UHGV virus genome: UHGV-0026213
Length of the DNA stretch: 64,000 bases
Source of the DNA: a virus
Direction: 5' to 3' (one strand)
Shown here: piece after piece, positions 1,684-52,076 of the stretch
Numbering within the stretch: the first letter of the stretch is position 1
Layout of the letters: every line of letters starts with the position of its first letter
Notes under the pieces: generated by a model
What the model saw: only the letters and a program-made list of their open reading frames with translations
Database searches by the model: none
Told to the model about the DNA's origin: nothing
Made by a program: the position numbers and the translations under genes

Positions 1684-4600
1684 CTAAGTACGATCCCCTA
1701 ACTGCTTCCCGTTAAGTTCTCGTTTCAGTACAGCCAAAATCCACTTCCACGCTTTACTCGTGATGTGGTACGGATTGCGTTTCTCCATTAAGAACTGACT
1801 TTCGCCGCTACGGAGTTCGAAGCTCTGCGCATTGAGTTGGTCTTGGCGAACACCGTTCTCGTCAGTGACATCTAACGAACAGGTAAAGTTAAGCTCGTAG
1901 CCTTCAGGATTATTACCCGGTGGTTCTAAGACAATATAAATATCCTGCCCTACACGTAGATCCTTTGGCGTAAGGGTAACTGCTTTACCTGTGTCGGCGC
2001 TGGTCGAAAGCGCAAACGGCACGCTATCAATAGCTGATACATACGCGTCCTTCCCAGCATCGCCGATAATCACCTTACCCGGCCAGTTACACTTCACCGT
2101 TCCTGTCACTTTTGCAATACGGTACTGCTGTTTATCAGTACCTTGTGCAAAGCGTAAAATGAGTTTATGCCGATACCGGTTTGCGGCAGCTTTGGATGTA
2201 CTCCACTCATTGTTCCAGGAGGTATGAAGTTCACCTTTCTTGGCCATCAAAGCACCACGAGACAGCTTACGTGGGAAGAATTGTGCCGGAAGTTGCCCAT
2301 CGTGGGAGATCGCTACACTCCCTTGTCCGGTTGGAAGTGCTATTGTTTCCGTAGGGCAATAATTTAACTCACTCACGTATGATGTAGGATCGATCAATTT
2401 CTGATAGTAATCACCGTCCTTACTGTCCGCTAACCAACCAACGGAAGAGTCCGTATACGATTCAAACAGTGAACGTAAATAGTGATACTTATCGATATCG
2501 ATGTTACCCGTTTTTGGATCGATCAGAGCATGGTTAATAGTGAGGAAACACTTCTCACTCAAACCATTAAACGCCAAACCCACACCGTCACCAGTAAAAT
2601 AGTCTACCAGGTCAAATGGAAGCGTCATTTCTATTTGTCGCAAGTTGATAGTCGTTGAACCAAACTGCGAAAAAGATAGCGCTAAACGAAGTACACGAGT
2701 ATTAACATTATAACGATAACGTATCATCCCACGCGGCGCGTGGTTCGCGGAGATCTTATCACCGTTTGCGCCCCACCCAATTAAATCGAGTATTTCAGCG
2801 TTTGTTACTTCACCGTTAAACAAAACGTCTTTAGTCGTGATTTCAACTGACGTTTCCCTTCCGGCATCCATTAACATCGAACCGTTATTCAACTCGAAGC
2901 TCTTGTGCCAAACTTCTGAAGTCGAGCCAGCACCTACACCCACCTTACAAGTTTTACTAGTAAGGTTAATACGCACATAACGGCGTCCCACTGTACCGCC
3001 CTGCGAGCTTGCACACAAAATAAGATCAGGTGCCGCAGACAGTGCCTTGGTCCCTGCAATGTCATCAACATCGAAAACGAATGAGCCTTCGAACGTTGGT
3101 GCGTTATTTTCCTTCGGGTTAAATGGTGTAAACCAACAATAAGGCATCGCGCCCTCGGTTGAGAAAATCAACTCTAAGTCAGATTTAACATTTAATCCGT
3201 GGGAATAAGAAAAAAGACCGCGACTTAAGGTACAAAGCGTACCACCACTTCCAGCACCTAACAATTTTCGATATATTAAGGCACGGGGTTCTGGGATAGC
3301 ACGGTTTAATAACGGCAACCGTGGGTTATCCGTTAACGTCCAATCTACAGAACTGAGTCCGTGTGCCTTACGAGTGCTAATGTGCTCACTAACCTCGGCA
3401 CTTTTCCCGAAATCAAATGTGGTTTCAAAACTCACGGTTTTATTCGAGTAGGATTCACCACCTGCAACAATATCAACGTAACCGATATAACCGCGCTCAG
3501 GATCGACTGCAATACTCTGAATTGGCTCAGTACGCGAATACAGAGAGCCTGTGAGCATGTTAACGTACAGATAATGACGAATCCCTACGTGTGTTGTAAC
3601 AAACTCTTGGAGAAGCTCTACGTGCGTTTCAGGCCCACTGAAATAAACGGGGTAGTCACCGTCGTAAATTTCGAATTGCACCGCTGCGGATTTAGCCGTG
3701 TCGCTACACTCAGCTTTAACCGCTACGGTGTAGTTTTCAACGTCCGCTGATGTTTCGTACACTGCAACGAGCGGAGACTGGCCTGTGGCTGCCTGGATAC
3801 CGTTAATGTAAACTGTAACCGGGCCACCCCCTGCGGCATAAACCCAAAGCTTCGGCTGGCGTGCCCTTACCCGCGTTTTTGCCAACACAGTAACAACTGA
3901 CTGGTCGCCCATCTGTGAGGCGGTTTTACCTACCGGAACAGATTGGAAACCCATTAGTGGTGGTTCTTCAATACCTGTCCAGTTAATGCCCTTACCAGCG
4001 CTCACTTTCCCCGTAGGCCAGGTCGTCTCAATTTGGTTGTTCGGTGAGAACCAGTTAAACATCGGCGTAGTTTGCAGGTCAATCGAACCTGTAACGGCGC
4101 TATCAGCTTTCGCGCCGTTCAGCAAATAGAAATACTTCAAATCTTGGACGGAGATTGCCGTACCCTGACTATTAAAGCGCCAGTCTGCGCCTTTTACCGC
4201 AGCGAAATCCGTTACCGACCCTTCTTTCGCGTTTGCAATCGCCGCAGCAACCACATCTAAACGCGCCGAAAGTTCTTTTAAGACGTTCGGCACCACTGCA
4301 CGGTTTTCAACCAAACCGTTCTGGTTAGTTGCGTAACGACCGATACCGTAAACGGTTTGCGAGGCTTTATAAATGCCTAGTTCCGACCAATCGTGGTGGT
4401 GACCTGCATCCGCTAAACCACTAAGCGCCGTATTTAACTCGGTAGACAACGGCTTGTCAACGTCTGCGGTGTTATCCGCTTGCCCTAACCCCAGATCAGC
4501 TTTCGTGATTGTCCTGGAGCCGTCATTCATCGGCTTACCGTTAATCATGGTCGTTTTAGCCACATACCCCGATAGGTCAGTTGAGTATGGTGCTAACGAA

Positions 4601-5892
4601 GCCGGTGTTGCAGCAACCCCAGTCGTTTCTGTACCTTTACCTGTTTTAAGTTTAGCGACGCCTTTTTCGGCGGTTGTCGCTTTTGTTGGGTCGATAGTCC
4701 CCACGATAGGGTCGGCGCGAGAACCTTTACCGGTAAAGCTAATCCCATTACGACCTTCAATGTACACCTTCGAGTCATCAGGGTCGCCACCGCCACCAGA
4801 ACCCGCATCTGGATCTTGTTGGTATTCCATCAACGCCGTGGTAGTCAGTAACGGGTTACCGTTCAGGGTGAGTTTGTTCATCCCTAAAGCATCGCCTGTT
4901 GACTCGATGCGTAATGTGTTTTTACCGGCACGCCAGTTGATATAACGTCCTGCACCCGTACCTTCCAGATGCCCTACCGCTAATACCACAGAACCGTTGG
5001 ATTTTAACGTAAAACCATCGTTGGCAAAAATGATTTCGGACTCACCGTTTTTCGAACGGAACTGTGCGCGGTTTCCTGACACCGTACAGTTAAACACGCC
5101 CCGCACTTCCGAAGAAATCCAGTGAGAGATATACGTATCGATAACCGACTGCGGTAAACGAAACGCTTTCAGCTCATCCGTCAGTGCTTTCAACTTTAAC
5201 CCGTACGCCATAAAGGTGTCGGGTGTTTTCAAGTTAACAGGATGCGCGTTAATCTGCGCGGATGTGGTTTCGTGCGGGTTCTTCGCTGCGATATGTGCTG
5301 GGTAATTAAATGCTTCGATTTCTTTACCCAACGCAGTCACTAACGCTTTAACTTCAGCTAATTTGTCTTTAATTAGCTGGTTAGCGTCGTCGGTTTTCAA
5401 TTCAATATCGTGAACTGCCGACGCTAAATATTTTTTGTTCAGCAAATCCGCCCAGGACGTTGCTGCTGGCGTCGCTGGATATAACGATGGTCTACCGTCT
5501 AATAACAGCCAGTCAGCACTGACTGGGTTATTCAAATATTTCACCAGTTCATCGAGAATATCAACAAACGGGTCGTAGAACGTACCGCCGAGCATTTGTC
5601 CTTCAAAGGTTACGATACCCTTGATGGATGGGTTGATAAGGTGTACCCCACAATACACGTTGGCTGCTACCGAGTCATCCAGTTCCGTCAGCTGATATTG
5701 CAGTTCGTAGTCCACCCCACGACTCAGTGGGGTGGTTGAACCTGGTTGTCTGACGACCAAATCTTCAAAGAACGGGCGGTGGTCTAAAATCACCACCCGA
5801 TCGTTGTTGTTCTCTGACCCGATGATACGCTCCTCTAAGAAGTGATTCTCGGCTTTCGTCCCCCGAGGATCGTAAGGATACGCTTTCATCAA
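1684..5892 (-). CDS. Large tail fibre protein (1402 aa)
   Basis: Contains the fibre-type repeat ITKADLGLGQADNTADVDKPLSTEL, a Gly-rich linker (GGGGDPDD) and an HHH motif; adjacent to another giant fibre gene. Confidence 0.6.
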   Translation of the reverse strand: MMKAYPYDPRGTKAENHFLEERIIGSENNNDRVVILDHRPFFEDLVVRQPGSTTPLSRGVDYELQYQLTELDDSVAANVYCGVHLINPSIKGIVTFEGQMLGGTFYDPFVDILDELVKYLNNPVSADWLLLDGRPSLYPATPAATSWADLLNKKYLASAVHDIELKTDDANQLIKDKLAEVKALVTALGKEIEAFNYPAHIAAKNPHETTSAQINAHPVNLKTPDTFMAYGLKLKALTDELKAFRLPQSVIDTYISHWISSEVRGVFNCTVSGNRAQFRSKNGESEIIFANDGFTLKSNGSVVLAVGHLEGTGAGRYINWRAGKNTLRIESTGDALGMNKLTLNGNPLLTTTALMEYQQDPDAGSGGGGDPDDSKVYIEGRNGISFTGKGSRADPIVGTIDPTKATTAEKGVAKLKTGKGTETTGVAATPASLAPYSTDLSGYVAKTTMINGKPMNDGSRTITKADLGLGQADNTADVDKPLSTELNTALSGLADAGHHHDWSELGIYKASQTVYGIGRYATNQNGLVENRAVVPNVLKELSARLDVVAAAIANAKEGSVTDFAAVKGADWRFNSQGTAISVQDLKYFYLLNGAKADSAVTGSIDLQTTPMFNWFSPNNQIETTWPTGKVSAGKGINWTGIEEPPLMGFQSVPVGKTASQMGDQSVVTVLAKTRVRARQPKLWVYAAGGGPVTVYINGIQAATGQSPLVAVYETSADVENYTVAVKAECSDTAKSAAVQFEIYDGDYPVYFSGPETHVELLQEFVTTHVGIRHYLYVNMLTGSLYSRTEPIQSIAVDPERGYIGYVDIVAGGESYSNKTVSFETTFDFGKSAEVSEHISTRKAHGLSSVDWTLTDNPRLPLLNRAIPEPRALIYRKLLGAGSGGTLCTLSRGLFSYSHGLNVKSDLELIFSTEGAMPYCWFTPFNPKENNAPTFEGSFVFDVDDIAGTKALSAAPDLILCASSQGGTVGRRYVRINLTSKTCKVGVGAGSTSEVWHKSFELNNGSMLMDAGRETSVEITTKDVLFNGEVTNAEILDLIGWGANGDKISANHAPRGMIRYRYNVNTRVLRLALSFSQFGSTTINLRQIEMTLPFDLVDYFTGDGVGLAFNGLSEKCFLTINHALIDPKTGNIDIDKYHYLRSLFESYTDSSVGWLADSKDGDYYQKLIDPTSYVSELNYCPTETIALPTGQGSVAISHDGQLPAQFFPRKLSRGALMAKKGELHTSWNNEWSTSKAAANRYRHKLILRFAQGTDKQQYRIAKVTGTVKCNWPGKVIIGDAGKDAYVSAIDSVPFALSTSADTGKAVTLTPKDLRVGQDIYIVLEPPGNNPEGYELNFTCSLDVTDENGVRQDQLNAQSFELRSGESQFLMEKRNPYHITSKAWKWILAVLKRELNGKQLGDRT

Positions 5893-5902
5893 AAAATTCT
5901 CC

Positions 5903-8900
5903 TTAATCGCGAATGATTACCGCCTGCACTTTATTGTTGGTGTCGATAAACGACATTACGCGCTCCTTGTTAAGATAAGGAGGTATCGGTAACGCAGCGT
6001 AATCCACCAGGTTGTTATTAAATTCAGTTGCCACTAACGCATTAAGCGTTTCGGGGTCTGAACTGACACCGGTCAATTCCATAACGCGCACACGATTTAA
6101 TGAGGAATAGTTGCTAATATAGTCTAACAACGTACCATAGACTTTATTCGCGGTTGCGCTATCTGCCGTAGAACGGATGTTGGCACGAACTTCATCCTCA
6201 TAAAGTCCCCCTAAACCGTAGTAAATAGGGGTATACGGATCGTTAACGATAGGTTCGATATTGAACCCTGTTAAACGGTCGGTTAATGGGATTTTCTGCG
6301 TAGTTCCCCCTGCCGCCGTACAACTTACATATTTGTCCGTCGCAGATAAATGCACCGCGACAGTATACGTAGTCCCCGCTAAGGTCAGTCTTGCACTAAA
6401 CGTTATTGCGTTGGTTGCACTACGGTTGTGGGTAAACGATACTTCAGGTTGTAATGAACTCCACGGTGCTGGCGTGACACGTTTCGTTGGTGTGAAACCC
6501 ACCACTACCGATTTCCCGCTACCGAAGTTCAAACCGAACCCTGCGTAACAATATTCACCGTTACTGTCGGTTAAACGATACCCGCGAGTGATAAGTAACG
6601 ACAACCGCATAAACTCGCCGTCGGTGTTTTTCCAACAACCTAAAACAGTTTCTAACACCGTGCCGGTTTTTGCGTTGCTTTCTGTTTCCCAACTGACTCG
6701 CATTCCTGCGTTCTTAAAAGCTGGGAACATGTTGTGGATAAACCCGTGTAGGTTATCGCTTACCCCTTTCGCGTCAAAAATCCACTTGGATGCGAGCTGG
6801 TCGTATTTCACCCCGTCTAAAGCTTTATACTGCCCACCGGCAACATAACGCCAATCTGCTTCACCGCGTACTACTGCCTGGAGTCCAGAAGCCCAGCAAG
6901 GCGCACCTACTGTTAAGTTAGCTAACCCAAGCGCTGCACGTGACGCGGAGCGCTGAATGTGTGCGTTGTCATCGGCTTTATGATCTTTCAGTTCACGGAA
7001 ATCGCCCAACCGTGTGACATTACGCATCTCCGTAACGAACACCTCAGAAATGTCGTTAACACCAATCAACCCTACACGCGTCATGGTATCCGTTTCAGCC
7101 TGACTGTAGCTGTCGTGGACAATATACTTCGCTTTGTTGTCAACAATATCAACAAAAATCCCTGCGTAGATTTCTGTATTCAATTTCGGAAAACGTTCAC
7201 TGACGTTAATCGTCATCAACGGAACGTCGTATGTTTCACCACCGATAAAATACGTTGAAGCTGGAAGCGTGACCAGAATTTTGTCTTTGACCGTAAGGTC
7301 TATTAAGTCGTTACCAGACTCACCAAAACGTATAATGTCAAGACGTGCCTCCGAGTCAACACCGCTGACAGCGCGCTCCAATTTTTCAATCTGGGATGTC
7401 TGCGCCATTACCACACTCCCATCGAGTGCTAAAGTCACATCATCCACATCCAGACCAAATTTAATCAGACCACGTTGCGCTGTGGTTGCGTTCCCTGTAC
7501 CAAAAGCGGTAAACGGGTGTTGGTGAACTTTAGGCGAGTATTTATCTAACTCCGCACGCTGTGCTGTAGAAATCGGTAAATCGGCATCGGGCGTATTCGC
7601 AACATTACCTAAACCAAAGGTAATCTTATCGATAGTAACCGAGCTGGTAAGTTGCATGTCGTTAATGTACGATTTAACTGCAACTAACTTACCGGTGAAC
7701 TCCGCATCGAGTTTTTCAATCAGTGCTGGCGTTGCTGCAAGGTTTTCAGCGGTACCGAACTCATCGGTCAACTGCCAAGCTGCCAGAGCTGTTGTATCGG
7801 TCGCGGTAGGAAGAATAAAGGTCGCTACGAACGGCGAGGCTTTTATCCCGCTACCGGTGATCGTAACCGTTGTTGTCGAACTTGCGTAGAATAAACCTGT
7901 GCCACCTGCGGTATTGCCTGGCAGATACGGGGCTACGGTGGTGGGGTCTAAGAGTTTTTTACCACGCCACAACAATCCTCGGTCATCGGGGTATAGCACA
8001 AGCTGGTTAGTACCTGCTTGGAACGTTACGGGGTTGTTACCCACGTTAACATCAGTTGAACCTTGGCCAATAAACTTGATGGATTTCGGATCAACAACAA
8101 ACTGGGCACCTAAACGTGTCTCGTCAACAACATCCGGTGCTTTCTTAATGGTAACCGTGTTACCTTTGTTTTGCGAACTAATGGTAACGGCGTCGGCAAC
8201 ATTATTGATCAGCGATTTAAAGTGGTGCTGATTCTCTAATGCTTCTAACGCAGCGTCCATGTTATCGAAGTTAATCCGACCGCTATACGTTTTACCGTTT
8301 ACGGTAATAACGACGTCAAACACGTTCCCTGTACGCTTCAGTTGAAAACGTAGCGTAAAATCCCCATCCGGTATTGCCGGATTAGGAGCTTGAGAAATAT
8401 AACGTACCGACGGTAACGGACTCCCGTAACCGTTCAATGTCAGACTGATAGTAAGGGTACCACCCCAGATTTGACCAGTAATCTCTACGAACTTACCGGA
8501 GTTACTACCCGGGTTTTCGTAGAAACGTAAACCAACCCTACCGACCGCTTCATTACCAGACGCTGTTTTACGTCCAGTAACAATAAAGTCAATATCTTGC
8601 AGGTTGGCAGGCACTGCATTAAAGTTAGCAATGAAACCGCTTTTCGCTCCTGTATAACGAAGCGCGCCGTGATATCTGTGACCACTACTAACATAGCTTT
8701 CGCTAAAATAAGGACTCACGTATTTCGACATCGAGACCGGATCAACTTCCGTCGTGAACGAAGTAAAACCCGGAAGTGTGGTAATCGTGCCGTTAACGTT
8801 CTTGCTCGGCGATTCACGAAGCAGTTTTTTCTGTGCGGTTAACGTTGCTTGTGTTGGGTACTTAGCATTAACATAATCCGTTAACTGCTGTTTCGTCTTC

Positions 8901-10225
8901 CCGTAAGCTAACGCGGCATCTGTCGCAATACCATTCAGCTCTAACGCACGGATCGGACCCCACGTATCGGTGTGCGGGTTGTCCTTACGTGTAACGTGTT
9001 CGTGTGCAGGCGCGTTACGATACAGCTGCTCAACTAACTGATGGTATTTGACTATTAACTGGTAAACATCGTTATCGATGTCAGGTTCTGGTGCGCCGGG
9101 TAAAGAACGAATTTGAATATAATCGTTTTCGGCCGCATACCAGTTTAAATTAATGTTCGTTTTAAACTTCAACCATTTAGCAACATCCGTTTTCGAATAC
9201 CCTGCCGAGAACTCATCAGGCGGCGTATCGACATTGAATGTGTAATCCATGGTCTGTTTATTTGTTTTTACTACGATGACGTAAACACCGTTTCCGGGTT
9301 GACGGGTTACACTAAAATCGATATCGTTTTTTAACTCATCGTCAGTTAAACCGTTGATTAACGTATAATCGTAGTTTGTTGAACCGCTACCAATAGCGAC
9401 CGTTAAGACCAGTGAGATTTTGCGCTGTTTTAGCTGCAGCCGTAGAATACTTGCACCGCCGTTAGCATAACAGAGCATCCAATCGATCTGTTCGTTTGGA
9501 TTCAATTTCGTCATGTCTGGCAGAATAGCAGGAATTATGTGTTTCACTGACAGGGCGTAGTCGTTAAAGGTTGCAGTTTTATAACTCAAGCTATAACGAT
9601 GACGGGCAGTGTTGTAGGTGAAGCCACCTTTATTGTCGTATACGGCATACTGCTCGGAAGTGATAACCTTGCTATTAGCACGGTATTCTAAATCCAGGGT
9701 ATTGCGTGCGATGGGGTTAAGCCGACTCACGACTTCCCCTAACGAATCGCCTAATCCAGCAATAGCCTGCATTAATTCCAGTTCACCTTTCCAATTCTCC
9801 CAATCGAACTGAATATCGACCGGCGGAAAGTAAACGTCCCCGATGACGGTGTCCCACTGACACGCAGACGGGTATTTATCTTTATTGAGTTCGCGTTCTG
9901 CGCTAATCTGTTGTTGGGTAGCCTGACCACAACCAACGGCGTGGTAATCTACCGTAAAATTCGATTTGTATTTGTCATTAACAATCCAAATCATCCCGTG
10001 AATGAGATAGGCTGTGCGCAACATACCGGTCTCGTACGGGTGTGTAATAACGTAATCGTCGCCTAAGGTCAGTGTTTTGCCGCCGCTCTTGACCACCAGG
10101 GATGTGGTGAAAAAAGGGGCGTGGGCAGGTACCAACATTCGGTATTTCGTACCAATGACGGCGACCGCTTCACCGGTTATTTTATTCCCCGGTTTTTTGA
10201 AGTGTGGGTCTAAGACGACAGCCAT
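5903..10225 (-). CDS. Large tail fibre protein (1440 aa)
   Basis: Contains the repeat KITFGLGNVANTPDADLPISTAQRAEL, matching the motif in the neighbouring fibre; 10-nt gap to the downstream gene suggests co-transcription. Confidence 0.6.
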   Translation of the reverse strand: MAVVLDPHFKKPGNKITGEAVAVIGTKYRMLVPAHAPFFTTSLVVKSGGKTLTLGDDYVITHPYETGMLRTAYLIHGMIWIVNDKYKSNFTVDYHAVGCGQATQQQISAERELNKDKYPSACQWDTVIGDVYFPPVDIQFDWENWKGELELMQAIAGLGDSLGEVVSRLNPIARNTLDLEYRANSKVITSEQYAVYDNKGGFTYNTARHRYSLSYKTATFNDYALSVKHIIPAILPDMTKLNPNEQIDWMLCYANGGASILRLQLKQRKISLVLTVAIGSGSTNYDYTLINGLTDDELKNDIDFSVTRQPGNGVYVIVVKTNKQTMDYTFNVDTPPDEFSAGYSKTDVAKWLKFKTNINLNWYAAENDYIQIRSLPGAPEPDIDNDVYQLIVKYHQLVEQLYRNAPAHEHVTRKDNPHTDTWGPIRALELNGIATDAALAYGKTKQQLTDYVNAKYPTQATLTAQKKLLRESPSKNVNGTITTLPGFTSFTTEVDPVSMSKYVSPYFSESYVSSGHRYHGALRYTGAKSGFIANFNAVPANLQDIDFIVTGRKTASGNEAVGRVGLRFYENPGSNSGKFVEITGQIWGGTLTISLTLNGYGSPLPSVRYISQAPNPAIPDGDFTLRFQLKRTGNVFDVVITVNGKTYSGRINFDNMDAALEALENQHHFKSLINNVADAVTISSQNKGNTVTIKKAPDVVDETRLGAQFVVDPKSIKFIGQGSTDVNVGNNPVTFQAGTNQLVLYPDDRGLLWRGKKLLDPTTVAPYLPGNTAGGTGLFYASSTTTVTITGSGIKASPFVATFILPTATDTTALAAWQLTDEFGTAENLAATPALIEKLDAEFTGKLVAVKSYINDMQLTSSVTIDKITFGLGNVANTPDADLPISTAQRAELDKYSPKVHQHPFTAFGTGNATTAQRGLIKFGLDVDDVTLALDGSVVMAQTSQIEKLERAVSGVDSEARLDIIRFGESGNDLIDLTVKDKILVTLPASTYFIGGETYDVPLMTINVSERFPKLNTEIYAGIFVDIVDNKAKYIVHDSYSQAETDTMTRVGLIGVNDISEVFVTEMRNVTRLGDFRELKDHKADDNAHIQRSASRAALGLANLTVGAPCWASGLQAVVRGEADWRYVAGGQYKALDGVKYDQLASKWIFDAKGVSDNLHGFIHNMFPAFKNAGMRVSWETESNAKTGTVLETVLGCWKNTDGEFMRLSLLITRGYRLTDSNGEYCYAGFGLNFGSGKSVVVGFTPTKRVTPAPWSSLQPEVSFTHNRSATNAITFSARLTLAGTTYTVAVHLSATDKYVSCTAAGGTTQKIPLTDRLTGFNIEPIVNDPYTPIYYGLGGLYEDEVRANIRSTADSATANKVYGTLLDYISNYSSLNRVRVMELTGVSSDPETLNALVATEFNNNLVDYAALPIPPYLNKERVMSFIDTNNKVQAVIIRD

Positions 10226-36937: not shown

Positions 36938-37426
36938 ATGAACGTAAATGATATTATCAATCTTAGTAAAAGTGATATTGTGCATGAATTTCTCAATCAC
37001 GGTGCGCGTGTAAGAAAAGAAATTGAAGAGAAGTTGACCCCAATGGTTGCTTCCACTCCTTGGATGGCAGGATACGCTGCTGCCTACTTCAGTTTCCAGA
37101 GCGGAAAAGCATACATAGCTAACCTGTTTGATTTCTTCAATCCATCAAACGACCACATAACAGAAACAGACGTTCGACAACGCCTTCGCGATTGCCGGTA
37201 TCAGTTCTTAAGAAATGTTACTGATGCGTACAATTTAGAGGAATTTCCTACACCGATTGTTCCCTATACAGAACCGGAATGGGAAAATTTTTATAGACGA
37301 ATTTGGATTGGTGGGTCTTACGTGGCAGATATAATGGAAATCATCGAACGTAGTGAAAACCAACTTGCTCTGCAACTATGGGAGTGGTTAAAAGCCAATT
37401 ATCCGAACTACGTCCAAATAGATTAA
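36938..37426 (+). CDS. Hypothetical protein (162 aa)
   Basis: ORF followed by terminator hairpin CCCTAGC..GCTAGGG. Confidence 0.5.
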   Translation: MNVNDIINLSKSDIVHEFLNHGARVRKEIEEKLTPMVASTPWMAGYAAAYFSFQSGKAYIANLFDFFNPSNDHITETDVRQRLRDCRYQFLRNVTDAYNLEEFPTPIVPYTEPEWENFYRRIWIGGSYVADIMEIIERSENQLALQLWEWLKANYPNYVQID

Positions 37427-37485
37427 TAGACACCCTAGCTTCGGCTAGGGTTACTTTATTTTTAACCATTTTAGGAGAATAAACC

Positions 37486-38412
37486 ATGTATTTGTACAAA
37501 AGTAAAAAAGTAAAAGGTATTAAAGACTGCCTTAGACAAATGGGGAGTCAGCATCTAGAAAATGTCATGGAAGAAAACCAAACAAAAGAAAATCCCGTCT
37601 CGAAATGGATAAAAAAGAATCGTAAGCATTTAACTAATGCCTTTATACCCTACGATGCTGAGTTAGGTCTCAAAGATCCCCGTCCCCTTCACGCACAAAC
37701 GTTGGCAATCGGGTGGCTATATGGCGGAGTTTCCTTAATATCCAACCAAGCACTTAGAGAACTTGTTTTCGAGACTGAGATGCCCAGTAAATTCCCTGAA
37801 GAATGGTTGGACTTTATACCCGCATGGACTGTGGCAATCGATGTAGGTAAAGAGGATGAGACTTTCTTTCTCGGCTATCGAAAAAATGGGAAGAGAAGGT
37901 TTATTATAATCGCTACAAATACGGATTACGGGTTAACAGAAGGCGTTACCACAATTGCCACTTGTTCGTTAGAGCTTCGTAGTGCAGGGAACGGGCTTGT
38001 GGAAATCGACTATGCCGACGGCGTGGAGAACGAACAAGAAAGGATGTTATGGTTATCTCTGGCCAAAGCCGCCACATCGATGATATTTCTGTGCACGCTA
38101 ATCCCACCTAATTACAGGGAGTCTTTTAATGATATTAAGTTCAGGGAAATCAAAAAGAACGGTAGTATTAGTTACGACGTTAAACCTCGTGAACGTGATG
38201 TTAAGGTAGATATCACACCAGGACAAGTGAATTATCTAAAAGGGTTTAACACTGACTTGAAAACCATGCAGGGTATCAAACATGCTAAGGCTGCCCACAT
38301 CCGTCGCGCACACTGGCGTAGATATTGGGTCGGCCCAAGAAATGGTGAAAGAAAGAGAAAACTTTGTTGGATTCCACCAACATTTGTCCGTGGCTACGTA
38401 CCCCACAATTAA
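37486..38412 (+). CDS. Hypothetical basic protein, paralog 1 with C-terminal AAHIRRAHWRRYW motif
   Basis: Shares LAIGWLYGGV / FIPAWTVAIDV and the C-terminal motif with the next gene. Confidence 0.55.
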   Translation: MYLYKSKKVKGIKDCLRQMGSQHLENVMEENQTKENPVSKWIKKNRKHLTNAFIPYDAELGLKDPRPLHAQTLAIGWLYGGVSLISNQALRELVFETEMPSKFPEEWLDFIPAWTVAIDVGKEDETFFLGYRKNGKRRFIIIATNTDYGLTEGVTTIATCSLELRSAGNGLVEIDYADGVENEQERMLWLSLAKAATSMIFLCTLIPPNYRESFNDIKFREIKKNGSISYDVKPRERDVKVDITPGQVNYLKGFNTDLKTMQGIKHAKAAHIRRAHWRRYWVGPRNGERKRKLCWIPPTFVRGYVPHN

Positions 38413-38436
38413 GCTAAAGTGTTTAGGAGTATTAAA

Positions 38437-39336
38437 ATGACAACGAATAATAGACTTTACGGGAAAGCGCTAAGACGCATGAGCGAACAAATAGAAAAGG
38501 CACACCAAACAATTCACGGATTAGATCAGTGTCGTTTTATTCGGTTCATTAACGAGCATAAACGTCAAATACCCGTAACGTTTATGCCAGTTAAAGATCC
38601 GACCTATCGTGAGTATGGTGTTACCGAACAGATTCCCAGACTGATTAAGCAGTCTCTGGGACTAGGATGGCAATACGCTGCTGTTGAAATCATCTCGGAT
38701 GAAGAACTGATGGCGCTCTTAGCAAAAACTGAGAGACTAAAAAATATCCCGTACTTCTGGATAGAAACCATCCCATCATTTACTTTCTCGGTTACCGTAA
38801 ATCTCGACGAAACCCCAATCACGTTATTTATCGGAAGACGTCTTTACGAAGGCGAAGAAGTTCTCTTTGTGATGTCATGCGAAGAACATGACGAGTCGGT
38901 ATACATGGAGTTTGAGATTTACACGATCGATAAAAGTAATGATGATTTCGTGGAGTTAAAGCCGATCCTTACTTCGGTTAAGGAGAATCAACGACTACTC
39001 GACGCGGTCTACATCGGGCTATATCTTTCATCACGAATTAAACGAACTGAACGTGAGAAGAAAGAATTTCGCGGAAGGTCCATTCGTTATGTTCCTGATA
39101 CAGAAATTCGCCCACGTAGTGAAGCAGTCGTTTTAGATGTAAGTCCGGTACAATGGGAAGATATAGAGCAGCAACGCAAGGAAGGACACGAGGTTTGTTT
39201 GGCGATTTATTGCGCCGCACATATCCGTCGTGCGCATTGGAAGCGTGTATGGTGTGGTAAAATGACAGAAATGCGCTGGCGCGAATGGCGATGGATAGCG
39301 CCGAGTTACATTTCTGGATTTTATCGTGGGAAATAA
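38437..39336 (+). CDS. Hypothetical basic protein, paralog 2 with C-terminal AAHIRRAHWKRVW motif
   Basis: Start refined to ATG after the SD cassette TTAGGAGTATTAAAATG (ORF-track start 38419 is GTG). Trp/Arg-rich C-terminus. Confidence 0.55.
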   Translation: MTTNNRLYGKALRRMSEQIEKAHQTIHGLDQCRFIRFINEHKRQIPVTFMPVKDPTYREYGVTEQIPRLIKQSLGLGWQYAAVEIISDEELMALLAKTERLKNIPYFWIETIPSFTFSVTVNLDETPITLFIGRRLYEGEEVLFVMSCEEHDESVYMEFEIYTIDKSNDDFVELKPILTSVKENQRLLDAVYIGLYLSSRIKRTEREKKEFRGRSIRYVPDTEIRPRSEAVVLDVSPVQWEDIEQQRKEGHEVCLAIYCAAHIRRAHWKRVWCGKMTEMRWREWRWIAPSYISGFYRGK

Positions 39337-39337
39337 A

Positions 39338-39380
39338 TAGTTTACCCCTAGACCGTGTGGTCTAGGGGTAACTTTACTTT
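39338..39380. terminator. Bidirectional terminator between convergent genes
   Basis: CCCCTAGACCGTGTGGTCTAGGGG hairpin flanked by T-runs. Confidence 0.6.
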
Positions 39381-50224: not shown

Positions 50225-50544
50225 TGACTGTGAACGACAATATAAAGAAAAAGATTGACGAAATCATAAGCGTCAGTTTAGATAGAATCGAATTAATTCC
50301 CGAAACTAAGGAGATCAAATATTACGTTCCTGCGGACGAACTATTTCCAGGTCTTCTTAGAATCTCACCAAAAAAGGTTGAAGAGGCTAAACGGCAATTC
50401 GAAGTTCGTGGCCTTAAGGTTGACATTGTTAACAAAAAACATTTCCAAGTAACGTATAGTCAGGAAAACATTATATTTAGTCCTGAACAAGCGCAACGTA
50501 ATTTAGATATTTTAACGAAACGAATGGGGAATAATAACAAATGA
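50224..50544 (+). CDS. Hypothetical protein (106 aa)
   Basis: Start overlaps the upstream stop; its stop overlaps the thyA start. Confidence 0.4.
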   Translation: MTVNDNIKKKIDEIISVSLDRIELIPETKEIKYYVPADELFPGLLRISPKKVEEAKRQFEVRGLKVDIVNKKHFQVTYSQENIIFSPEQAQRNLDILTKRMGNNNK

Positions 50545-52076
50545 AACAGTATTTAGCGTTAATGCAAGACATTCTGGATAACGGTGTTGTCAAGAAAGAC
50601 CGCACAGGTGTAGGGACACTATCTGTATTTGGTCGTCAACTACGTTTTGACCTGAAAGAAGGTTTCCCATTAGTTACTACGAAGAAGGTTCACCTGAAAA
50701 GTATCATTCATGAACTGTTGTGGTTCTTAAACGGTGACACTAACGTGAAGTACCTGCAAGAGAACGGGGTAAAAATTTGGGATTCATGGAGGCGGCCATA
50801 CGTAGGTTTTACTGGTAAAGTCATTCGCATTCCACGATTGAAAAAAGAATACGTCCCTTTTAATGGAACTTTTCCTTTGGCCATTCCTAGTTTCGATTCA
50901 ATAGAAGATAAAAAATTGGCATACGCCTGGAAACGAATGATGCATCGCTGTTATGATAAAACAGCACATAACTACCGACATTATGGTGCAAAGGGTGTAA
51001 GCGTTGCTTTACGTTGGCACGACGTAACTAATTTTGTTAACGATGTTAAAAAACTGCAAAATTGGTTTTATAAAAGTAAGAACTGGAATGACTTCGAACT
51101 CGATAAAGATTATTACGGCTCCAATCAATATTGCCCCGACGGATGTGTATGGCTCAGTAGAGGAGAAAACGTCCATCATGCGTGGGTACGCATTATTAAA
51201 GGTGACGGAACACAATACATTTGCCGAACGTATAAACATGCATCCCAATTAACTGGTTTAAGCAAAACATCCATCCACAGATTCGTTAAGGAAGGCATTA
51301 CCCCACATCTTAAAGGAAATAACAGAATCAAAGGTGTAAAAAATTGGATTATGCAAAAAGCTACTACTGAAGACTACCTCTATCGCAACGAAATTAACGA
51401 CGACGGAGATTTAGGCCCAGTCTACGGTAAACAATGGCGAGATTGGGTAGGTCCAGACGGTCGCCACCACGACCAGATCAGCAAAGTTATCCAACAACTT
51501 CGTGAAGACCCTGACTCCCGCCGTATTATCGTTAGCGCCTGGAATGTAGGTGACCTGGACGATATGGCACTTAATCCATGCCACAACTATTTCCAATTCT
51601 ACACAACAGAAATGACGTTGCTTGAACGACTGGATTGGTACGAAGCAAATGAACCGGAAAAATTTGCGAACGCGCCACTTATTAATCACGAAGATATTGA
51701 TGATGAAGAACGACTTCATGAAACTTTAGATCGTGAAGGTATCCCTCGTCGTAAGCTTTCATGTTTTTACATGATGCGGAGCAACGATTACCTACTCGGC
51801 GCGCCATTTAACGTCGCTTCGTACGCGTTGTTAACTCACATGATTGCACAGCAGTTGAACATGGTTCCAGACGAGTTGGTTTATAGTGGTGTAGATGTTC
51901 ATCTTTACTCTAACCATCTGGAGCAGGCAAAACTACAACTTACTCGCGAACCTTACCCGCTACCTAAACTGGTTATCAAACGTAAACCTGATTCCATCTT
52001 CGATTACAAATACGAAGACTTCGAATTAGTTGGTTATCAATCGCACGACACAATTAAAGCTCCCATAGCTGTCTAA
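50541..52076 (+). CDS. thyA: Thymidylate synthase with two in-frame insertions (511 aa)
   Basis: N-terminus MKQYLALMQDILDNGVVKKDRTGVGTLSVFG, and GDLGPVYGKQWR, DSRRIIVSAWNVGDLDDMALNPCH, PFNVASYALLTHMIAQQ, PLPKLVIKRKPDSIFDY all align with ThyA; catalytic Cys retained. About 205 extra aa after IWDSW and about 46 extra aa after QFYTT. Confidence 0.85.
   Translation: MKQYLALMQDILDNGVVKKDRTGVGTLSVFGRQLRFDLKEGFPLVTTKKVHLKSIIHELLWFLNGDTNVKYLQENGVKIWDSWRRPYVGFTGKVIRIPRLKKEYVPFNGTFPLAIPSFDSIEDKKLAYAWKRMMHRCYDKTAHNYRHYGAKGVSVALRWHDVTNFVNDVKKLQNWFYKSKNWNDFELDKDYYGSNQYCPDGCVWLSRGENVHHAWVRIIKGDGTQYICRTYKHASQLTGLSKTSIHRFVKEGITPHLKGNNRIKGVKNWIMQKATTEDYLYRNEINDDGDLGPVYGKQWRDWVGPDGRHHDQISKVIQQLREDPDSRRIIVSAWNVGDLDDMALNPCHNYFQFYTTEMTLLERLDWYEANEPEKFANAPLINHEDIDDEERLHETLDREGIPRRKLSCFYMMRSNDYLLGAPFNVASYALLTHMIAQQLNMVPDELVYSGVDVHLYSNHLEQAKLQLTREPYPLPKLVIKRKPDSIFDYKYEDFELVGYQSHDTIKAPIAV

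Follow-up and report, generated by a model that had tools for sequence, protein, structure and literature searches.

A tandem pair of predicted AcrVA2/FinQ-family genes in an accessory slot of an SPN3US-related jumbo phage, with module exchange inside the first gene

Results and Discussion

Two adjacent paralogs and the features around them

The DNA analyzed here, a stretch of 64,000 nucleotides of the virus genome UHGV-0026213 (hereafter the window), carries two adjacent open reading frames (ORFs) on its plus strand, which we call A (37486-38412, 308 amino acids) and B (38419-39336, 305 amino acids when read from a GTG). Are these true paralogs, or do they merely share a motif? A direct BLASTP comparison aligned them over 278 residues with 24% identity and 46% positives (E = 2e-22). 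A and B are therefore genuine paralogs along their full length, and the motif they share is not a product of chance. These data bear out a preliminary description of the locus, made from the letters alone, which had seen two adjacent paralogs of ~300 amino acids with shared internal blocks and had regarded them as a divergent tandem duplicate retained in a phage. The internal blocks common to both are G76-W77, P104, W107, P112, F128, and P234-R235, followed by the C-terminal block AAHIRRAHW(K/R)R.W.G...W.WI.P. The C-terminal ends, quoted there as near-identical, read exactly as quoted: ...HAKAAHIRRAHWRRYWVGPRNGERKRKLCWIPPTFVRGY in A and ...IYCAAHIRRAHWKRVWCGKMTEMRWREWRWIAPSYISGF in B.

B probably starts at the ATG at 38437 rather than at the GTG at 38419, because an AGGAG precedes this ATG with a 7-nucleotide spacer and because P0004, a protein 97% identical to B, has the 299-amino-acid length that this start gives. 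A six-frame scan of the window with a hidden Markov model revealed no third copy. The features of the locus are listed below.

37432..37451, plus strand: terminator-like hairpin (8-bp stem, CTTCGG-type loop) with T-run, directly 5' of A; 5' edge of the A-B unit
37473..37477, plus strand: putative AGGAG ribosome-binding site of A, 8 nucleotides before the ATG, read from the sequence
37486..38412, plus strand: gene A, 308 amino acids, assigned to the AcrVA2/FinQ family (PF26125, AcrVA2-like) by homology, synteny, and tree
37486..38118, plus strand: variable N-terminal module of A, codons 1 to ~211, with the helical N-terminal domain and most of the beta-sheet middle domain; putative target-recognition part
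38119..38409, plus strand: conserved C-terminal module of A, codons ~212 to 308, including the four-stranded C-terminal domain; putative effector part
38296..38316, plus strand: HIRRAHW motif of A (H271, R273, H276, W277), placed by alignment to AcrVA2 H286, R288, and H291
38425..38429, plus strand: putative AGGAG ribosome-binding site of B, 7 nucleotides before the ATG at 38437
38437..39336, plus strand: gene B, 299 amino acids from the ATG (305 from the GTG at 38419), divergent second AcrVA2/FinQ-family copy, clade B
39220..39240, plus strand: HIRRAHW motif of B (H262, R264, H267, W268, in 299-residue numbering)
39342..39371, either strand: bidirectional terminator-like hairpin with a 13-bp stem, between B and a convergent minus-strand gene of 251 amino acids; 3' edge of the A-B unit

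A is assigned to the AcrVA2/FinQ family

The preliminary description had recognized the C-terminal motif from no characterized family. On this point it did not hold: sequence comparisons, with a predicted fold that appears to agree, place A in the AcrVA2/FinQ family (Pfam PF26125), and the alignments identify the motif, far from being an orphan, as the essential HxRxxH(W) signature of that family. AcrVA2 is an anti-CRISPR of a Moraxella bovoculi prophage, and FinQ is a fertility inhibition protein of IncI-type plasmids. A search of PDB sequences with A returned AcrVA2 (7ci1/7ci2) as its single match (E = 1.4e-4), in which HIRRGHWHGYWQG...RVRWQPAVFV was paired with HIRRAHWRRYWVG...KLCWIPPTFV. 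Direct BLASTP alignment of A to AcrVA2 covered residues 6-301 at 22% identity (E = 1e-8), and a profile built from the jumbo-phage clade only found AcrVA2 alone (E = 1.6e-7, ~200 residues). Exhaustive profile searching yielded 595 cluster representatives, mostly of 300-380 amino acids, many of which align from about residue 75 through the C terminus; a 46-sequence family profile that includes those representatives matched chain positions 9-318 of 7ci1 with an E value of 1.6e-38. In the reverse direction, AcrVA2 as a tblastn query led to homologs in Erwinia jumbo phages and to annotated finQ genes on ~590 plasmids, mostly conjugative and enterobacterial. The precomputed PF26125 "AcrVA2-like" tag is carried by P0001, which is 97% identical to A, and by both the A and the B genes of four other contigs (L007, L010, L011, and L012). 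AcrVA2 was also the only significant structural match of the predicted model of A.

The same tblastn search matched Erwinia phage RisingSun (MF459646.1 / NC_042018.1) at 128488-129120 with 25% identity (E = 2e-7). The product is labeled "putative mycothiosynthase" and is probably a misannotated AcrVA2-like gene.

Both A and B fall in phrog_6160 of the PHROGs collection, where the function is given as unknown. Scans of A and B against NCBIfam, PADLOC, and a copy of Pfam-A without the PF26125 model returned nothing meaningful. The only matches in these scans were to AAA_19 (E = 0.26) and, by PADLOC, to Csx19 over residues 103-192 of B (E = 0.011), and we judged both to be due to chance. The preliminary description had named a confident match to a housekeeping family as an outcome that would undo its account. 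The match that emerged is confident, but it leads to a family of conflict systems, so that the pair is explained rather than refuted.

The residues essential in AcrVA2 are kept in both proteins. H271, R273, and H276 of A, and likewise H262, R264, and H267 of B, align with AcrVA2 H286, R288, and H291, and the HxRxxH positions were invariant in alignments of 13, 20, and 46 sequences. Substitutions H286A, R288A, and H291A each abolish down-regulation by AcrVA2 and leave target binding intact (Marino et al., bioRxiv 10.1101/2022.11.29.518452). The nearly invariant equivalent of AcrVA2 W79 is W77 in A and W78 in B, and the equivalent of D89 is D in B and in two 70%-identical alleles of A (P0002 and P0003) but N87 in A of the window; W79A and D89A each cause a moderate loss of AcrVA2 function (10.1101/2022.11.29.518452). 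B retains every invariant residue of the family.

Three Alexandravirus phages, pEa_SNUABM_36 (L003), Alexandra (L004), and AD1 (L006), have the motif as HxRxAH[W/Y], with Y in place of W. These Erwinia and Dickeya jumbo phages are not SPN3US-like, and the single member that they carry (~310-350 amino acids) has other neighbors: it lies downstream of a large RecA-like gene.

How closely do A and B resemble the characterized proteins? With AcrVA2 they share a length of ~300-320 amino acids, the HxRxxHW motif, and the W79 equivalent; in the predicted models, the order of a helical N-terminal domain, a beta-sheet/helix middle domain, and a four-stranded C-terminal domain also appears to be the same. 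A aligns with AcrVA2 end to end. However, the identity of A to AcrVA2 is only ~22%, and the similarity of B is confined to the motif. AcrVA2 comes from a temperate Moraxella prophage, whereas A and B lie in a virulent jumbo phage of the nucleus-forming type, as tandem copies with no adjoining AcrVA1-like partner. With FinQ, the likeness lies in the C-terminal module HIRR(G/A)HW..YW.G....W.PP (for A, 46% identity over 39 residues, E = 1e-8; for B, E = 0.002), in the enterobacterial host range, and in its reported lowering of target-operon mRNA. Unlike A and B, FinQ is plasmid-borne and longer (a 363-residue ORF), its N-terminal two-thirds cannot be aligned with either protein by BLASTP, and its targets, the F tra genes, have no obvious bearing on a lytic jumbo phage. 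Nearest to the pair are the phrog_6160 orthologs of the Erwinia phages Asesino (gp235) and pEa_SNUABM_4, the Escherichia phage EC001 (MGA_211), and the Salmonella phages SaP7 and JN03, which align over the full length at 21-30% identity and occupy the same slot. These are single-copy genes annotated "hypothetical protein," whereas the lineage of the window adds the more divergent B.

B is linked to the family only transitively, through its homology to A, its invariant residues, and the PF26125 tags on P0004 and P0005. The model of B has a mean predicted local distance difference test score of 72.5, and its order of elements appears to parallel that of the family.

An accessory slot with zero, one, or two copies

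The UvsX-like protein of the window is 81% identical to its SPN3US counterpart, and a megablast comparison of the locus with cultured phages yielded no match. By sequence, we place the window as an uncultured relative of Salmonella phage SPN3US, a jumbo phage of the nucleus-forming Chimalliviridae type. Hosts of the cultured relatives are Salmonella, Escherichia, Erwinia, and Dickeya.

The gene order around the pair recurs in three related phages, Asesino, EC001, and pEa_SNUABM_4, and in each of them the slot is occupied by one homolog. A is the positional ortholog of these single-copy genes (Asesino gp235, EC001 MGA_211, and SNUABM_4 00243). The SPN3US type genome (L013, JN641803, 2269-2332) has no copy, only 62 bp between SPN3US_0213 and SPN3US_0214. 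EC001, which belongs to the same species as SPN3US, carries an AcrVA2-like gene of 307 amino acids (L002, 6755-7678), a presence/absence polymorphism within one species. Among the Salmonella-phage records that have the UvsX-like gene, a homolog was present in 2 of 24. Besides the window, four independent metagenomic contigs (L007, L010, L011, and L012) have the tandem pair. Because the copy counts differ in this way, the slot is an accessory locus with zero (SPN3US), one (EC001 and Asesino), or two (the lineage of the window) copies.

A hairpin with a T-run stands at the same position 5' of the ortholog in L007, L010, L011, Asesino, EC001, and SNUABM_4; the stems differ in sequence and the pairing is kept. 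This constancy of position across genera suggests that a transcript boundary or a signal for processing has been conserved.

Exchange of the first ~210 codons of A between lineages

A neighbor-joining tree unites clade A with the single-copy positional orthologs and puts clade B just outside this group. B is an old duplicate or else one that evolves fast. In the comparison of the window with L007, identity is 71% for A and 63% for B, compared to a median of ~84% for the syntenic neighbors. This divergence is unevenly spread along A. Protein identity among A orthologs is ~70% for residues 1-120, 35-48% for residues 121-200, and 90-96% for residues 201-308, and the ratio of nonsynonymous to synonymous substitution rates (dN/dS) drops from 0.23 in codons 1-200 to 0.07 in codons 201-308. 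In the alignments, this C-terminal part is also what all members of the family have in common. The C-terminal part of B is likewise under purifying selection (proportion of nonsynonymous differences, 0.18; of synonymous differences, 0.74; dN/dS, ~0.07). The putative recognition regions of A and B are only 10-32% identical to each other.

Nucleotide comparisons between contigs revealed blocks whose borders fall inside gene A. L011 and L007 are only 68.4% identical in codons 1-211 of A; for the C-terminal remainder of A, for B, and for the 251-amino-acid gene, the value is 96-99%. Conversely, the window shares codons 1-211 of A with both L010 and L011 at 97.3%, compared to 63% for B and 83-91% for the flanks. 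The maximum chi-square method placed a breakpoint at codon 212 for L011 and L007 (P = 3e-26) and at codons 227-248 for the window with L010 and with L011 (P ~ 1e-5). On the basis of these identity blocks and breakpoints, the first ~210 codons of A behave as a cassette that has been exchanged between lineages and joined, inside the gene, to a constant C-terminal module.

Proposed function and alternative explanations

AcrVA2 binds nascent Cas12a, at an LSKT element in the N-terminal polypeptide, and causes a translation-dependent loss of cas12a mRNA, regardless of promoter and codon sequence (Marino et al., 10.1101/2022.11.29.518452). Its homolog FinQ lowers F tra mRNA and inhibits F transfer, and ~1,800 AcrVA2 orthologs have been found on plasmids and "megaphages," mostly without Cas12a; the family's C-terminal region is conserved and the N terminus divergent (10.1101/2022.11.29.518452). 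Proteins that cluster with AcrVA2 have also been reported from huge phages. By homology, we infer for A and B a translation-coupled silencing of mRNA, with recognition and effector roles for the two modules. The variable N-terminal and middle domains would bind a specific amino acid sequence of the target protein as it emerges from the ribosome. The C-terminal module with the HxRxxHW motif would then trigger the decay of the mRNA under translation, by executing it or by recruiting the factors that do, and synthesis of that one target protein would be blocked. We think it likely that A and B are two polypeptide-specific mRNA silencers of the AcrVA2/FinQ family with different targets, probably other than Cas12a. 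That the two targets differ is probable because the recognition regions are almost unrelated and the effector motif is the same. The role in host interaction or anti-defense proposed in the preliminary description is plausible in this light, given the anti-CRISPR activity of the family's founding member.

Several points weigh against this interpretation. The mechanism is carried over from AcrVA2 and not from any member in a jumbo phage, and a 2026 review still lists the mRNA decay step of AcrVA2 itself as unknown. The AcrVA2 residues that touch the Cas12a 620-636 peptide are dispensable in vivo (10.1101/2022.11.29.518452), so that recognition can be mapped only tentatively to the variable middle segment. 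At the position of AcrVA2 D89, A of the window has N87, and P0001 and SNUABM_4 also have N. The case from structure is limited by the models of A and B, which are of moderate confidence: word-indexed homolog searches gave 3-16 proteins, hence shallow AlphaFold alignments, and the models were built on alignments of 20 sequences. A Foldseek search with the model of B gave no significant match, a phmmer search of the PDB with B alone found nothing, and an hhalign comparison of the B clade to AcrVA2 aligned no more than the motif of 30 residues (E = 5.9e-4, probability 29%). Finally, the mosaicism of A is drawn from metagenomic assemblies, in which chimeras are possible, although five independent assemblies show the same pattern.

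Could the pair instead be genuine type V-A anti-CRISPRs that bind nascent Cas12a and stop its synthesis? This explanation would fit the homology to AcrVA2, in which the three essential residues at the C terminus are all kept, and the reports from huge phages. We nevertheless consider it improbable. A is only 22% identical to AcrVA2, with low identity outside the effector module and N-terminal and middle parts that can barely be aligned; the different recognition regions of A and B also speak against one common target. Most of the family is found in bacteria that lack Cas12a, and FinQ acts on another target. The cultured relatives infect enterobacterial hosts, namely, Salmonella, Escherichia, Erwinia, and Dickeya, in which, to our knowledge, type V-A systems are not typical. 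SPN3US and Asesino, moreover, form a phage nucleus, which already shields their DNA from DNA-targeting CRISPR systems. Since this protection is already in place in such phages, the AcrVA2-family genes found here support the suggestion by Marino et al. that Cas12a is not the only target of the family.

Competition between genetic elements in the manner of FinQ, in which a protein of a plasmid, prophage, or coinfecting phage is silenced, or regulation of the phage's own genes, is rather unlikely but deserves more weight than a Cas12a target. FinQ, which IncI-type conjugative plasmids carry in that same range of hosts, inhibits F transfer and reduces tra mRNA, and the presence/absence polymorphism and shuffling of alleles would suit any conflict function. 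This alternative shares its mechanism with the silencing explanation that we favor and differs from it only in the identity of the target; strictly internal regulation fits poorly with the absence of the gene from SPN3US itself. A generic nucleic acid-binding protein, whose basic and aromatic C terminus would contact DNA or RNA with no need for polypeptide recognition, seems to us about as improbable as a type V-A anti-CRISPR, if not slightly more so. The C-terminal module is indeed rich in Arg, Lys, His, and Trp, and the downstream step of AcrVA2 could well involve contact with RNA or the ribosome. B could also be a decaying or functionless duplicate, as its greater divergence, its position outside the single-copy orthologs in the tree, and its model without a structural match might suggest. 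We rejected this explanation, which now has hardly any likelihood, since B is an intact ORF in at least five independent contigs, is under purifying selection in its C-terminal part, keeps all invariant residues of the family, and has an AGGAG site of its own.

The silencing explanation can be extended, more speculatively. A and B may form a toolkit of a nucleus-forming jumbo phage that silences two mRNAs, neither encoding Cas12a, each addressed through its polypeptide, with the first ~210 residues as an exchangeable specificity cassette on a constant effector module. We regard this fuller picture as possible, with the balance somewhat against it. Candidate targets would be cytoplasmic defenses acting at the level of RNA or translation, which can reach such phages, or the proteins of rival mobile elements. 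If the toolkit exists, its natural alleles (A1/A2, B1/B2, and the single-copy orthologs of E. coli, Salmonella, and Erwinia phages that can be cultured) would offer a direct route to the recognition code and to the mRNA decay step.

Earlier publications already describe this family with its essential motif and Pfam model and report it on huge phages and "megaphages"; our analysis extends that work. New here are the link of phrog_6160 and nucleus-forming phages to AcrVA2/FinQ, the tandem pair, and the module exchange within a gene. In many SPN3US-, Asesino-, and Machina-like jumbo phages, an entry of "hypothetical protein" or "unknown function" (phrog_6160) can thus be replaced with a concrete, testable annotation. 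A pangenome survey, in which a cutoff of ≥30% identity was applied, had listed no verified anti-CRISPR homolog for the nucleus-forming cluster. The polymorphism of zero, one, or two copies and the swap inside the gene point to the part that likely sets specificity, and culturable relatives that infect E. coli or Salmonella (EC001, JN03, and SaP7) make the hypothesis accessible to experiment.

Neighboring genes and other observations in the window

Upstream of A lie genes for an exonuclease and an RNase H and five small genes without an assigned function. Downstream of B follow the convergent 251-amino-acid gene, a 99-amino-acid gene, and the UvsX-like recombinase gene, and an SbcC-like gene is also among the neighbors, whose assigned functions lie in replication and recombination. 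No tRNA gene was found in the window. A sigma-70 promoter scan, unsuited to phages with their own RNA polymerases, found 9 sites compared to 13.4 expected from shuffled sequences, i.e., no enrichment.

The ORF just 5' of A (36938-37426, plus strand, 162 amino acids) has no PHROG match and is hypervariable. Its nucleotide identity is 93.9% between the window and L010, 53.3% between the window and L011, 53.5% between L011 and L010, and 75.9% between L011 and L007. Its alleles are shuffled independently of those of A, and it may be a second diversifying accessory gene in this hot spot.

Elsewhere in the window, a thymidylate synthase ORF of 511 amino acids (50541-52076, plus strand) contains an in-frame segment resembling an HNH endonuclease at about residues 120-271 (phrog_160 with phrog_2081/374). 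This segment could be an intein, a homing endonuclease insertion, or a fusion. Two adjacent giant ORFs on the minus strand (1684-5892 and 5903-10225; 1,402 and 1,440 amino acids) encode paralogous virion structural proteins on which phrog_8078 and phrog_7557 cross-match, and they represent another tandem pair of paralogs in the window.
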